From contig CM120640.1 in NCBI GenBank assembly GCA_051362555.1, positions 7,440,001-7,504,000 of the forward strand: a stretch of DNA of 64,000 nt, written 5' to 3'. The DNA comes from Lingula anatina. Taxonomy: Eukaryota; Animalia; Brachiopoda. Made by a program: the position numbers and the translations under genes. A model generated the notes under the pieces. The model was given only the letters and a program-made list of their open reading frames with translations, was not told the origin of the DNA and made no database searches. Below are positions 8,511 through 47,024 of the stretch, piece after piece (the first letter of the stretch is position 1; each line of letters opens with the position of its first letter).

Positions 8511-8984
8511 ACTATCTGGTTTAAAAGGCGCTTTAAGAGCACTTGAACAGCGATATAAATAATTGAAAGTCATTTATTTTCTTTTTAAATCCGCTATTGA
8601 CAATAGGCCTACTACATAATAAAACATAATCAATAAAAATCAATACTACATAGTAAAAGATATTTGCAAAATGTCTTTAACTTAGAATGTTAGTTGAGTT
8701 AAATTGATCTGATGACCATTGTTAAGATTAATTCATAATGGACTGTGTCTAAAGGACGAGAGATATTTGCACCCCCGATATAAATTAATTGAAGCGTTTG
8801 GTCACCGCAAAATGGTCTTGGGTAGTGGTATTTCCCCGCCAAATTACGTCAATTTGACTGAACATGTTATACTATGAGTACAAAACCTTTTTTCAGCTGG
8901 AGGTAATGCATGACATGGAGAAAGAATGTGTTGCAAGAGGGAGAGAGGGATGATAACGTAAAAAGTTCATTTTTTTAAAATGCT

Positions 8985-9100
8985 AACCTCCATTAGGAGG
9001 TCTTGAAAAATTAGTCTATAGACTCATTGCATTGTTCCTCTCCACGGAAATCTTTAGTAAAAGGCGAAAGATTTATTCGTGGATGAAGAGAATCCAGAGT
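8985..9100 (-). ncRNA. RNU5: U5 snRNA copy 1 (edge variant)
   Basis: Minus strand ACTCTGGATTCTCTTC...AAATCTTTCGCCTTTTACTAAAGATTTCCGTGGAGAGGAAC (invariant loop I GCCUUUUAC), Sm-like AATTTTTC, 3' stem-loop; 3 substitutions vs internal copies. Confidence 0.95.
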
Positions 9101-9610
9101 GAAAACCTCACTGCACTTACCGGTTATATACTTCATTTTAGTAGCATTTGAAATGGGAGTGACTTTGCATAATTATTCTAAAAAACAGCTTCATATATTT
9201 TGTGCTATTGAGATAATACTTGAGACATTTTTAATTTCTCTATAGCAATAACATGTAATATTTTAGTTTGGGAATAACAAACAATACCATCTTTGGTTCT
9301 TTTGAAAAGCTCGTTCTTTTAATGCCATGTGCCGACGGGTAAGGCGCGCAGTCGGTCGCCAATAAAAGGGGTCATGCATGTAGGTGTTGCACGTTTATAT
9401 TTAACATCTAAAACACTCCGACGCTCTCAGTGCCAACAGTAAACATGTTTTGAAATTTGAAATTCACCTGAGATATTGTTGGCGGATGCCGTACTTGGTG
9501 AAACGCTTGGTGATCATCATGCAAAATGATATAAATTCCAGTTATAGCAACAGTTTAGTTCGGACATGATCATGGCCAAATGGAAAGTGTGTTGAAAAGT
9601 AAAATAATGT

Positions 9611-9618
9611 AAAAATAA
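9611..9618 (-). terminator. Pol III oligo(T) terminator of 7SL (representative; same position in other units, deleted in unit 10, altered in unit 27)
   Basis: TTATTTTT immediately after the predicted 7SL 3' end. Confidence 0.75.
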
Positions 9619-9917
9619 AGAGTTGAGTCTAGTTCTTTTGGTTAGGCGACCAGCAGGCTTCTATTCACGGATGCGATCCCACCATACTGCTCGACACGGA
9701 ACCTTTTGGCTGCTGCATTTTTGCCCTGACCCAATGCGGTCCGCTTTGGTCAACCTGGTCGACCAGACCTCCGTCCAGCTTACCATATTGATGCCGAGCT
9801 TAGTGCGGACACCCGATCGCCATAGACAGACGACCGGCAGAAGCCCTAACCTCACACCATCCACCAGCTCAGACCTCTGAACAGCCAGATTACAGGAGCC
9901 CGCCACAGCTCCCAGTC
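9619..9917 (-). ncRNA. RN7SL: 7SL/SRP RNA copy 1
   Basis: Minus strand matches metazoan 7SL: Alu domain GACTGGGAGCTGTGGCGGGCTCCTGTAATC, CGATCGGGTGTCCGCACTAAGCTCGGCATCAATATGGT, helix 6 GGAG tetraloop, helix 8 CAGG-GCA-GAAA-TGC-AGCAG, GTGGGATCGC..GTGAATAG; 299 nt; followed by TTATTTTT. Confidence 0.95.
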
Positions 9918-10173
9918 GGTTGTTGATGACAATATTGTTATAATTGAAAGTGCTTTATTTTCTTTTAAACACTTAAAAATCAATACTGCATAATAAAACA
10001 TATTTGCAAAATGTCTTTTTCTTAGAATGTTAGTTGAGTTAAATTGATCTGATGACCATTGTTAAGATTAATTCATAATGGACTGTGTCTAAAGGACGAG
10101 AGATATTTGCACCCCCGATATAAATTAATTGAAGCGTTTGGTCGCCGCAAAATGGTCTTGGGTAGTGGTATTT

Positions 10174-10191
10174 CCCCGCCCAATTACGTCA
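10174..10191. promoter_or_regulatory. GC-box/CCAAT/CRE-like cluster ~260 bp upstream of 7SL (representative)
   Basis: CCCCGCCC-AA-TTACGTCA; also TTATAA at -26..-21 (9938-9943). Function inferred. Confidence 0.35.
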
Positions 10192-10321
10192 ATTTGACTG
10201 AACATGTTATACTATGAGTACAAAACCTTTTTTCAGCTGGAGGTAAGGCATGACAAGGAGATAGAATTTGTCGCAAGAGAGAGGAATGTAAACGTAAAAT
10301 GTTCAATTTTTTTTCAATGCT

Positions 10322-43668: not shown

Positions 43669-43784
43669 AACCTCCATGAGGAGGTCTTGAAAAATTAGTC
43701 TATAGACTCATTGTATTGTTCCTCTCCACGGAAATCTTTAGTAAAAGGCGAAAGATTTATTCGTGGATGAAGAGAAACCAGAGT
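43669..43784 (-). ncRNA. RNU5: U5 snRNA copy 26
   Basis: Array copy. Confidence 0.95.
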
Positions 43785-44305
43785 GAAGACCTCACTGCCC
43801 TTACCGGTTATATACTTCATTTTAGTAGCATTTGAAATGGGAGTGACTTTGCATAATTATTCTAAAAAAACAGCTTCATATATTTTGTGCTATTGAGATA
43901 ATACTTGAGACATTTTTAATTTCTCTATAGCAATAACATGTAATATTTTAGTTTGGGAATAACAAACAATACCATCTTTGGTTCTTTTGAAAAGCTCGTT
44001 CTTTTTAATGCCATGTGCCGACGGGTAAGGCGCGCAGTCGGTCGCCAATAAAAGGGGTCATGCATGTAGGTGTTTGCACGTTTATATTTAACATCTAAAA
44101 CACTCCGACGCTCTCAGTGCAAACAGTAAACATGTTTTGACATTTGAAATTCACCTGAGATATTGTTGGCGGATGCCGTACTTGGTGAAACGCTTGGTGA
44201 TCATCATGCAAAATGATATAAATTCCAGTTATAGCAACAGTTTAGTTCGGACATGATCATTGGCAAATTGAAAGTGTGTTGAAAAGTAAAATAATGTAAA
44301 AATAA

Positions 44306-44604
44306 AGAGTTGGGTCAAGTTCTTTTGGTTAGGCGACCAGCAGGCTTCTATTCACGGATGCGATCCCACCATACTGCTCGACACGGGACCTTTTGGCTGC
44401 TGCATTTCTGCCCTGACCCAATGCGGTCCGCTTTGGTCAACCTGGTCGACCAGACCTCCGTCCAGCTTACCATATTGATGCCGAGCTTAGTGCGGACACC
44501 CGATCGCCATAGACAGACGACCGGCAGAAGCCCTAACCTCACACCATCCACCAGCTCAGACCTCTGAACAGCCAGATTACAGGAGCCCGCCACAGCTCCC
44601 AGTC
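44306..44604 (-). ncRNA. RN7SL: 7SL RNA copy 26
   Basis: Array copy. Confidence 0.95.
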
Positions 44605-45008
44605 GGTTGTTGATGACAATATTGTTATAATTGAAAGTGCTTTATTTTCTTTTAAACACTTAAAAATCAATACTGCATAATAAAACATATTTGCAAAATG
44701 TCTTTTACTTAGAATGTTAGTTGAGTTAAATTGATCTGATGACCATTGTTAAGATTAATTCATAATGGACTGTGTCTAAAGGACGAGAGATATTTGCACC
44801 CCCGATATAAATTAATTGAAGCGTTTGGTCGCCGCAAAATGGTCTTGGGTAGTGGTATTTCCCCGCCCAATTACGTCAATTTGACTGAACATGTTATACT
44901 ATGAGTACAAAACCTTTTTTCAGCTGGAGGTAAGGCATGACAAGGAGAAAGAATGTGTTGTAAGAGGGAGAGAGGGATGATAACGTAAAAAGTTCATTTT
45001 TTTATGCT

Positions 45009-45124
45009 AACCTCCATAAGGAGGTGTTGAAAAATTAGTCTATAGACTCATTGTATTGTTCCTCTCCACGGAAATCTTTAGTAAAAGGCGAAAGATTTAT
45101 TCGTGGATAAAGAGAAACCAGAGT
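45009..45124 (-). ncRNA. RNU5: U5 snRNA copy 27 (edge variant)
   Basis: Loop I intact; substitutions in the 5' stem region (GGATAAAGAG), 3' stem-loop and PSE-like element. Confidence 0.9.
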
Positions 45125-45655
45125 GAAGATCTCACTGCCCTTACCGGTTATATACTTCATTTTAGTAGCATTTGAAATGGGACTGACTTTGCATAATTAT
45201 TCTAAATAAACAGCTTCATATATTTTGTGCTATTGAGATAATACTTGAGACATTTTTAATTTCTCTATAGCAATAACATGTAATATTTTAGTTTGGGAAT
45301 AACAAACAATACCATATTTGGTTCTTTTGAAAAGCTCGTTCTTTTTAATGCCATGTGCCGACGGGTCGGGTGCGCAGTCGGTCGCCAATAAAAGGGGTCA
45401 TGCATGTAGGTGTTGTACGTTCATATTTAACATCTAAAACACTCGGACGCTCTCAGTGCCAACAGTAAACGTGTTTTGATATTTAAAATTCACCTGATAA
45501 ATTGTGGGCGGATGTCGTATTTGGTGAAACGCTTGGTGATTATCATGTCAAATTAGATAAATTCAAGTTAGGCCTATAGCAACGGTTTATTTATATTGGG
45601 ACATGATCACGGCCAAATGGAAAGTGTGTTGAAAAGAAAAATAATGTCAAAATAA

Positions 45656-45954
45656 AGAGTTGGGTCTAGTTCTTTTGGTTAGGCTACCGGCAGACTTCTA
45701 TTCACGGATGCGATCCCACCATACTGCTCGACACGGAACCTTTTGGCTGCTGCATTTCTGCCCTGACCCAATGCGGTCCTCTTTGGTCAACCTGGTCGAC
45801 CAGACCTCTGTCCAGCTTACCATATTGATGCCGAGCTTAGTGCGGACACCCGATCGCCATAGACAGACGACCGGCAGAAGCCCTAACCTCACACCATCCA
45901 CCAGCCCAGACCTCTGAACAGCCAGATTACAGGAGCCCGCCACAGCTCCCAGTC
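45656..45954 (-). ncRNA. RN7SL: 7SL RNA copy 27 (edge variant)
   Basis: Several substitutions, including a compensatory pair; distal upstream region deleted. Confidence 0.92.
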
Positions 45955-47024
45955 GGTTGTTGATGACAATATTGTTATAATTGAAAGTGCTTTATTTTCT
46001 TTTAAACACTTAAAAATCAATACTGCATAATAAAACATATTTGCAAAATGTCTTTTACTTAGAATGTTAGTTGAGTTAAATTGATCTCGGACGCTCTCAG
46101 TGCCAATAGTAGGCCTAAACATATTTTGACATTTAAAATTCACCTGAGATATTGTGTGCGGATGATAGGCCTATATTTTGTCTATTTATGATAACACTTT
46201 GGTTTATATTATATCGCTGAAATATAGGCCTAATTTTTTTTATTCACAAGTTAGGCCCTATAAGTTCTCTTTTCGCTCAAAAGTAAAAAATACAAAAAAG
46301 TAGGCCTAATTTATAATAAATGTTACCTTATAGCCTATAGGACTACTTTGGATAAATATGGGCTATTGGGGGGACCGGGGATAGTTGGACCCCGGGGTAA
46401 GTTGTCCCCCCGTAAATTTATGTAGGCCTAAAAGTAGGCCTAACTACGAGTAAAAAAAATTGGCCACATAGGCCTTCTCTTGTAATGTGACCGTAGCCTA
46501 CAATGCTAAGGAAGTGTCGAACGTTAAAAAGTTTTGCTTAAGCTGTGAGTCGAAATAAACAATTTTTGCACCTAAAAGTAATTTTGTTTAAGAGATTTGA
46601 AAATCTATTTTCATAGGCTTTTGATCGAATAGGCCTATATTAGGCCTATAGGCCTCCTATGTATTGAGCAATGTCTCTCCTGATGAAATAAATTAGTTTG
46701 ACAATTCATTTACTAATTTTAAGATGTTTTTTCCACGAAACTGCAGGCCTGCTATACAAATAGGCGTATGACGAGAGTCGAAGTGAACGCTGGGGTGCAA
46801 TTTTGCTGTAGGTCTAATTTAAAAAGATCTAATTTCAAAAAAAGATAAAAATTAGGTAGCGATTTTCCAAATTAATTCTTTGAATTGCAAAGACATTGGT
46901 CAAAGTCACCACCCAAGTCAATATTAATTTACATCAGAAATAAGAGAGTAATGGGAGCAACAGAATCGTTTCACTGAATGCTGCAGGTGCGCTGCAGAAT
47001 TTTCAGAAGAAAAGCAGACGATAA

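Follow-up and report, generated by a model that had tools for sequence, protein, structure and literature searches.

A tandem array in Lingula anatina whose repeat unit joins a U5 snRNA gene to a 7SL RNA gene

Organization of the array

The DNA analysed here (the window) is a 64,000-nucleotide stretch of contig CM120640.1 of the L. anatina assembly GCA_051362555.1. Rfam models applied to the whole window at the gathering threshold gave 54 matches, 27 to Metazoa_SRP and 27 to U5, all of which spanned the full model length. The two genes alternate strictly between 8985 and 45953, all on the minus strand, in agreement with the 27 co-oriented units described in an earlier note on this DNA. The same span of unit-like sequence, 8559..46164 (minus strand; Rfam and unit alignment), was also recovered, and holds 27 units of ~1339 bp. 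In transcription order the unit consists of a 405 bp spacer, the 300 nt 7SL gene, a 516 bp spacer and the 118 nt U5 gene. Units with both gene types are arranged head to tail, the spacers are homogenised along with the genes, and 5S and tRNA genes are absent from the unit (Rfam, whole window). The U5-to-U5 interval was 1337-1342 bp in 24 of 26 cases, the remaining two being 2696 and 1184 bp. At E values up to 1, the flanks (1-8980 and 46000-64000) yielded no extra U5 or SRP copies. Tandem Repeats Finder missed the array because its period limit was 500.

Both ends of the array have decayed. The diverged left edge (8559..8984, minus strand, 93% identity to core) comprises the 3′ flank of U5 and DNA that would have preceded a 28th 7SL, itself missing, and stops near the TATA-like word of that missing gene. 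The right edge (45954..46164, minus strand; unit alignment) is formed by 134 bp of 7SL upstream DNA followed by what is left of a 7SL-U5 spacer, at 85% identity. Beyond it a UBE2G1-like gene (47141..49691, plus strand; exon ends judged by eye), with an exon 90-96% identical to those of many invertebrates, stands head-to-head with the array, with 1188 bp between its candidate ATG and the start of the first 7SL. A search with a CNG-channel exon returned no relative.

The U5 and 7SL genes

In the covariance-model check proposed in the earlier note, both RNAs were far above the Rfam thresholds in 27/27 copies. U5 scored 93.2-98.8 bits (RF00020, threshold 40) and 7SL 207.7-226.6 bits (RF00017, threshold 70), with the Alu and S domains both matched. 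The low coordinates of the U5 genes (RF00020, minus strand) are 8985, 10322, 11662, 14358, 15697, 17036, 18375, 19714, 21053, 22393, 23577, 24916, 26255 and 27594 for copies 1-14, and 28933, 30272, 31611, 32950, 34289, 35629, 36969, 38308, 39647, 40989, 42329, 43669 and 45009 for copies 15-27. Copy 4 of the 27, used as the example below, has its U5 at 14358..14475 and its 7SL at 14992..15291, both on the minus strand. The 7SL genes (RF00017, minus strand) have their low coordinates at 9617, 10957, 13653, 14992, 16331, 17670, 19009, 20348, 21688, 22872, 24211, 25550, 26889 and 28228 for copies 1-14, and at 29567, 30906, 32245, 33584, 34924, 36264, 37603, 38942, 40284, 41624, 42964, 44304 and 45654 for copies 15-27.

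Loop 1 of U5 is identical in 27/27 copies and is presumably the canonical U5 loop. In the Sm site, C replaces the conserved last G (upper-case in Rfam) in all 27 copies, both old edge copies included, and in copy 11 the first A of the site is changed too. Judged by sequence, the array genes are variant U5 genes whose homology to U5 is not in doubt. In human U5 variants, changes of the Sm site accompanied poor Sm loading (PMC8457000). The C may nevertheless be what the normal U5 of this animal carries.

Each 7SL copy forms 95-97 of the 120 consensus pairs as standard pairs. Variants that break a pair made up 1 of 9 shared variants vs 5 of 8 singletons (p 0.05; copy 10 excluded). The first base of 7SL is A, paired to U44 in a compensated A-U pair, whereas 16/16 comparator SRP RNAs start with G. 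The terminal branch of 7SL was 0.29 vs 0.12-0.17 for four comparators (L008, L022, L051 and L052); since the comparator SRP RNAs are metagenome loci, 50-72% identical, the long branch may reflect lineage rate. Free-energy folding of the 7SL haplotypes gave results that shifted from one near-identical copy to another, and these were set aside.

Candidate promoters and terminators

U5 is a Pol II transcript driven by an upstream PSE, and 7SL is a Pol III transcript. At the position expected for the PSE from the available text of PMC4494074 and bioRxiv 2024.09.10.612236, a 20-bp element is unchanged upstream of 25 of the 27 U5 copies and carries one change in one copy. The candidate PSE of copy 4, assigned by position alone, occupies positions -60 to -43 relative to the Rfam start (14518..14535, minus strand). 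A TATA-like word at -28 of U5 (14498..14503, minus strand; word match, copy 4) may be a chance occurrence in AT-rich DNA and is unexpected in a vertebrate-type Pol II snRNA promoter. For 7SL, a TATA-like word lies at -26 (15313..15317 in copy 4, minus strand; position transferred from copy 12), and a T5 run two bases 3′ of the gene, the likely Pol III terminator (14986..14990 in copy 4, minus strand), follows 25 of the 27 copies, with T4 in copy 27 and loss in copy 10. The oligo(T) terminator described earlier is thus present except in copy 10; the apparent promoter assigned earlier to each gene would correspond to the U5 element and to the 7SL TATA-like word, U5 copy 3 being cut off from its own.

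A PSE common to both promoters was rejected, as 169/200 shuffles reached the observed score upstream of 7SL. The upstream regions of U5 and 7SL share no element beyond chance, which argues that the two genes are independent. Octamer-like words occur upstream of U5 and of 7SL.

A retrotransposon insertion and a deletion

The claim that every unit is complete holds for most units; in copy 3 the U5 gene is severed from its promoter by a LINE, and in copy 10 the 3′ end of 7SL is deleted. The LINE is a 5′-truncated non-LTR retrotransposon of 1343 bp in the same sense as U5 (11787..13129, minus strand; RVT_1, E 1.3e-13). It retains an uninterrupted 303-aa C-terminal RT frame (12220-13131) and ends 3′ in a short hairpin, a poly(A) tail being absent; the proteins most closely related to it are ~910 aa long and combine an endonuclease domain with an RT domain. 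An exact 14 bp target-site duplication flanks it (11773..11786 and 13130-13143, unstranded), the first copy of which covers -7 to +7 of U5, so that U5 copy 3 keeps 7 bp of its own upstream DNA and the LINE separates the rest, including the promoter.

In the available text of PMC4494074, Keno (Tx1 clade, U2) and a U5-targeting Tx1 family are non-LTR retrotransposons that target snRNA genes, and Utopia, according to the available text of PMC4640811, targets U2. The present element shares with them a sense orientation and insertion at an snRNA gene that belongs to a repeated locus. Unlike these families it is a single copy, and at most a candidate for such targeting; no second copy was found within the window or in viral contigs. 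The LINE may come from a family that targets the U5 start and exploits the promoter there, and a single insertion, if uniform over the unit, would cover the U5 start with a chance of ~1%.

The 155-bp deletion in 7SL copy 10 (junction 22872..22885, minus strand, from the alignment; deletion at about 22878) shows 2 bp of microhomology. The last 7SL bases and the T-run were lost, and the next T4 lies 55 bases on.

Variation among the copies

Among 25 core units, pairwise comparison (300 pairs) gave a mean of 10.4 base differences (range 2-22), or ~0.8%; for edge units the figure is ~40-58. With shared sites taken two at a time, 86 of 210 pairs had all four allele combinations, a count to which recurrent CpG change may add some. 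Copies have recombined with one another, as in concerted evolution. Variable core sites numbered 1/118 in U5 (24 core units), 14/300 in 7SL and 30/920 in the spacers, and in this core comparison neither gene was significantly less variable than the spacers (p 0.24 and 0.28). Indeed, core diversity was higher in 7SL (0.013) than in the spacers (0.006 and 0.009), and 20 distinct 7SL sequences are found among the 27 copies.

Edge unit 27 has private differences at 2/300 positions of 7SL vs 30/516 of the spacer (p 1e-4). Within that spacer, differences fall at 4/239 positions beside U5 vs 26/277 farther off (p 1e-4; boundary set post hoc). Conversion tracts could mimic this conservation of the edge unit.

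Comparison with other small-RNA loci

A motif scan of metagenomes for SRP helix 8 yielded at least 118 loci, of which 40, made up of the initial 20 and another 20 chosen by motif triage, were analysed with Rfam; 38 scanned loci had flanks of only 300 bases. Eukaryote-type SRP genes were recognised at 22 of the 40, in 18 clusters. U5 was found beside the SRP gene at 0/22 of these loci within their available flanks, which were sufficient on both sides in 12/22. Their identities are 57-74%, with no close relative among them. One unrelated eukaryote contig (L061) appears to be a collapsed tandem unit of U4, SRP RNA, U3 and two tRNAs; like it, contigs L009 and L050 resemble kinetoplastid SRP RNA/small-RNA loci. 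Kinetoplastids, in the available text of PMC2679053, have tRNA/snRNA and SRP RNA/tRNA/5S loci, in which SRP RNA likewise has genes for other small RNAs as neighbours. Such loci include tRNA genes and have Pol III promoters, whereas the unit described here is free of tRNA genes and has both genes in the same direction.

Repeat units that mix small-RNA genes are a familiar arrangement. The earlier note knew of no described U5-7SL array, and no such unit appeared in the literature searched, outside which lie surveys, reportedly of snRNA genes by Marz et al. 2008 and of 5S linkage by Vierna et al. 2013, that could list one. The accessible parts of PMC12054243 and PMC2770079 hold none. Linked units documented in the available text of PMC6204057 and PMC3464664 are 5S-U1 (Asellus), 5S-U2 (Crassostrea) and 5S-U1-U2-U5 (Solea), and U2-U5 units occur in several fish families and are common in fish (PMC3464664). 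These resemble the array in that two unrelated small-RNA genes are co-homogenised in a tandem unit of ~1 kb and, for the 5S-U snRNA units, in the mixing of Pol II and Pol III genes. They differ in that the partner here is 7SL, with neither 5S nor another snRNA. With the array, 7SL joins the few partners found so far in mixed units.

The earlier statement that 7SL is usually low-copy has exceptions, namely the 67 clustered copies of maternal SRP RNA in zebrafish (available text of bioRxiv 869651) and the SRP RNA tandem arrays in the Hydractinia draft assembly (PMC11067881). For Hydractinia and Nematostella, the available text of the latter describes evenly spaced U5 arrays with near-identical spacers. 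It presents tandem arrays in Hydractinia as a general ncRNA layout, with no stage-specific claim, and takes each RNA family in turn, with no mention of U5 and SRP RNA interleaved in one unit, though the supplementary tables could show one. Maternal U5 of zebrafish is repeated, 41% divergent and retrotransposon-interrupted (available text of bioRxiv 858944). The Lingula array resembles the zebrafish maternal SRP RNA and U5 in its clustered, repeated variant copies and its retrotransposon-interrupted repeats. The accessible zebrafish accounts do not describe a joint U5-SRP unit such as that found here, and they show a somatic class and egg-specific expression, whereas the Lingula array is known from genomic sequence alone. 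The sea-urchin U1/U2 arrays invoked in the earlier note serve as an analogy only, the genome being that of a brachiopod.

Possible origin and role of the array

The reading we favour, with a probability of about 0.4, is that an accidental U5-7SL pair was co-amplified and homogenised, that each gene is transcribed separately, and that the array supplies variant RNAs to the egg or early embryo. An ancestral single U5 and single 7SL would have lain ~0.5 kb apart beside UBE2G1, and a duplication would have taken both. Unequal crossing-over and gene conversion would then have expanded and homogenised U5-7SL as one unit. U5 would be transcribed by Pol II and 7SL by Pol III, independently, the T-run of 7SL insulating the U5 promoter behind it; selection would act on the dose of each RNA and not on the pairing, and ordinary body-cell genes for both RNAs would lie elsewhere in the genome.

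The Sm-site C and, in 7SL, the long branch and the compensated first pair are hints of a variant gene set comparable to the maternal clusters of zebrafish. The Sm site, the long branch and the zebrafish precedent indirectly favour the oocyte or early-embryo idea of the earlier note, which stays hypothetical. Clustered high copy number, a maternal-type trait, is present with 27 copies; a second U5 or 7SL class was not seen within the window. By this analogy it is possible, though doubtful, that the unit belongs to an egg-type system, in which 7SL in variant form is co-amplified with a U5 whose Sm site is non-canonical, while ordinary copies serve the body. If so, the dual maternal/somatic machinery of zebrafish would extend to lophotrochozoans, a working U5 snRNP could assemble without the conserved last G, and one Sm-site letter with many 7SL differences would provide a marker for dual maternal/somatic RNAs outside vertebrates.

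A serious competitor, held tentatively, is that the array is the ordinary main locus active in all cells, its odd letters being lineage traits and its pairing an accident fixed by concerted evolution. The high Rfam scores of both RNAs, the fold-preserving variation and the adjoining housekeeping-type UBE2G1-like gene all fit, as does the plain tandem layout of U5 and SRP RNA in cnidarians (available text of PMC11067881) and of U2-U5 in fish (available text of PMC3464664). However, a C at so conserved an Sm-site G would be unusual for a main U5, given the poor Sm loading of the human variants (PMC8457000), and the clustered class of zebrafish is the maternal one (available text of bioRxiv 869651 and bioRxiv 858944). 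Were this the only locus, the spliceosome would depend on a U5 whose Sm site departs from the consensus, with a bearing on how exacting the Sm ring is towards its binding site.

It is unlikely that only one partner works, with U5 a passenger of a useful 7SL, 7SL drifting beside a selected U5, or the array largely silent. The non-consensus Sm site in every U5 copy, the number of 7SL sequences with diversity above that of the spacers, and the tolerated LINE insertion and deletion speak for this; yet U5 is the least variable part of the unit, with 240 bp upstream of it conserved in the edge unit, and shared 7SL variants mostly preserve pairs, with the first pair compensated.

Selection for the pairing itself, through a shared enhancer, chromatin domain or read-through that raises splicing and secretion together, is decidedly improbable. 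Strict 1:1 alternation with short spacers, the octamer-like words upstream of both genes, and the repetition of snRNA with SRP RNA in one unit of contig L061 would be in keeping with it. Against it stand the lack of a common upstream element beyond chance, the 0/22 comparator SRP loci with U5 in their available flanks (from at least 118 loci), and the repeated gain and loss of small-RNA gene linkages (available text of PMC6204057). The functional "splicing plus secretion" coupling put forward in the earlier note finds no support, given the first and last of these.

Full resolution of the array allows homogenisation, edge decay, a deletion and a retrotransposon insertion to be traced in individual copies. 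That the copy number is an artefact of assembling a short duplication is scarcely credible: although the count comes from the assembly alone, even the most similar core units have 2 differences, a private insertion, a private deletion and diverged edges are present, and DNA runs from three studies, one of which may be the source of the assembly, contain most of the unit (0.80-0.92 of its sampled words).

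Organization of the array

An Rfam search of the whole window returned 27 matches to Metazoa_SRP (RF00017, 7SL) and 27 to U5 (RF00020), all above threshold, and no match above threshold to any other family. The 54 genes were all full length and strictly alternating, and every one lay on the minus strand. The tandem U5-7SL array proposed in the earlier note is therefore real, and both genes passed the covariance check in 27/27 copies. In the direction of transcription the unit comprises a 405-bp spacer, 7SL, a 516-bp spacer and U5, and 24 of the 26 periods were 1337-1342 bp. Unit-like DNA starts at 8559, within the upstream region of an absent 28th 7SL, and the array ends at 46164 in a spacer remnant of 85% identity; no weaker U5 or SRP copies were found in the flanks of the array within the window.

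The claim that every unit holds complete genes was correct for most units and failed for two. In unit 10, a 155-bp deletion takes the final bases and the T-run of 7SL. In unit 3, U5 was cut from its promoter by a 1343-bp insert (11787-13129) that has the same sense as U5 and is bounded by two exact 14-bp copies, the duplicated sequence spanning U5 positions -7 to +7. Within the insert, a frame of 303 aa without interruption matches reverse transcriptase, and its best relative (61% identical) is a 911-aa endonuclease-RT protein; the insert is a LINE with a truncated 5′ end. It now sits behind the promoter of U5 copy 3. The chance of a single insertion covering the U5 start is about 1%, which is no more than suggestive. 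The 3′ end of this sense insertion across the U5 start has a hairpin and no poly(A), and it is possible that the family borrows the U5 promoter.

Evolution of the units

Pairwise differences among 25 core units averaged 10.4 bases (range 2-22, 300 pairs) and rose weakly with distance, from about 10 for neighbours to 12-18 for units 18-24 apart; the two edge units differed from most others by 40-58. All four allele combinations occurred in 86 of 210 pairs among 21 shared variable sites, indicating exchange between copies, although some of these pairs may stem from recurrent CpG change. The pattern is that of concerted evolution. Since no two core units were identical and the unit's sampled words were present at 0.80-0.92 in DNA runs of three studies, one of which may be the assembly's source, an assembly artefact is unlikely.

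Signs of function pointed both ways. On the negative side, in 24 core units variable sites were not significantly fewer in U5 (1/118) or in 7SL (14/300) than in the spacers (30/920), and diversity within the unit was highest in 7SL. On the positive side, private differences of edge unit 27 numbered 2/300 in 7SL versus 30/516 in the spacer, with 4 in the 239 bp adjoining U5 versus 26/277 farther off, a boundary set post hoc. All 7SL copies retain 95-97 of the 120 consensus pairs. With truncated copy 10 excluded, pair-breaking variants made up 1/9 of the shared class versus 5/8 singletons (p 0.05).

Upstream elements and terminators

Upstream of U5, between about -60 and -43, a 20-bp candidate element was unchanged in 25 of 27 copies. 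Its location matches that expected of a PSE, an upstream promoter element of snRNA genes, at about 60 bp (PMC4494074) or 40-70 bp upstream (bioRxiv 2024.09.10.612236). TATA-like words lie at -26 of 7SL and -28 of U5. In vertebrates the latter would select Pol III (bioRxiv 2024.09.10.612236); U5 is kept here as a Pol II gene because T-runs within it would likely stop Pol III. A T5 run follows 7SL in 25/27 copies. The separate promoters described earlier remain apparent ones; the 7SL oligo(T) was confirmed apart from copy 10, which lost it, with T4 in copy 27.

Variant features of U5 and 7SL

The earlier note overlooked changes in both RNAs. The last base of the U5 Sm site is C in 27/27 copies, old edge copies included, versus an upper-case G in the Rfam consensus. 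Among human U5 variants, an altered Sm site was accompanied by poor Sm loading (PMC8457000). The array 7SL begins with A, paired with U44 as a compensated change, versus G in 16/16 comparator SRP RNAs. In a tree with these comparators (16 of 22 metagenome SRP loci, four duplicates and two truncated loci being excluded), the array 7SL had a terminal branch of 0.29 versus 0.12-0.17 for metagenome loci L008, L022, L051 and L052; three protist-like or aberrant rows were as distant or more, and the comparators are of unassigned taxa. Judged from sequence, the Sm-site C, the A-U44 start and the long branch are signs, not proof, of a variant class.

The sole core U5 variant changes the first A of the Sm site to G (copy 11, 23577-23694). 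Edge 7SL copy 1 (9617-9916) has a G to A change within the terminal loop of helix 8 (position 196) and may be impaired by it.

Comparison with other arrays

Mixed repeat units are established for 5S with U1, U2 or U1-U2-U5, and for U2-U5 in several fish families, and such linkages are reported to arise and disappear repeatedly (PMC6204057; PMC3464664). Hydractinia has tandem U5 arrays and, in a draft assembly, tandem SRP RNA arrays (PMC11067881); the two might be interleaved. We scanned 40 of at least 118 metagenome loci, 22 of them eukaryote-type SRP and none a close relative. In the available flank, U5 lay beside SRP RNA in 0/22, 12 of which had enough flank on both sides. One contig (L061, Ga0233426_10049508, 1-2017) holds U4 (minus), SRP RNA, U3 and two divergent tRNAs, a layout resembling kinetoplastids. 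Its ends overlap by 127 bp, so it probably represents a tandem array of another eukaryote collapsed to one unit of about 1890 bp. The present array is therefore not the only case of SRP RNA and an snRNA in one unit. Elsewhere SRP RNA lay within a cluster of 12 tRNA matches (L009:1-3282), next to one tRNA (L050) or, on the short contig L058 (perhaps a chimeric transcript), adjoining an RNase P match of bacterial type.

The earlier note knew of no described U5-7SL array, and our literature search, direct phrase search included, likewise found none within its coverage, outside which lie the two likeliest linkage surveys. The pairing is real and probably undescribed, within a known kind of array.

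Origin and role

The likeliest origin is a joint duplication of one U5 gene and one 7SL gene that were near neighbours next to a UBE2G1-like gene; the pair would then have been expanded and homogenised as a single unit, each gene retaining its own polymerase. Zebrafish egg-type SRP RNA genes are clustered (67 copies; bioRxiv 869651) and egg-type U5 genes are repeated and interrupted by retrotransposons (bioRxiv 858944), with lone somatic genes elsewhere. By analogy, the array may be an egg-type U5 and 7SL set (probability about 0.4). Its significance would grow if it were shown to be used specifically in eggs, or if its non-canonical Sm site were shown to work. That it is instead the plain main locus for both RNAs is a serious possibility, and an array in which one partner is a passenger or silent is unlikely. 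Selection would have acted on dose, not on pairing; selected U5-7SL co-regulation is very improbable, and the best 16-mer match between the upstream regions of the two genes was no better than chance, being reached in 169/200 shuffles.

The UBE2G1-like gene (47141-49691, plus strand) and the array are arranged head-to-head, with the start of the first 7SL about 1.2 kb from the gene; a zebrafish somatic SRP RNA likewise lies near a gene start (bioRxiv 869651).

Other features of the window

Exons at about 53900-62400 (minus) resemble those of a cyclic-nucleotide-gated channel whose C-terminal tail is long; a search with the tail exon found no relative. By eye, exons at about 1200-5700 (minus) resemble an ADAM-type metalloprotease/disintegrin gene, with a zinc-binding motif near 4200-4300. 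Just left of the array (8303-8425), a weak hairpin match on both strands to the MIR5565 model, far below threshold, is probably an inverted repeat.
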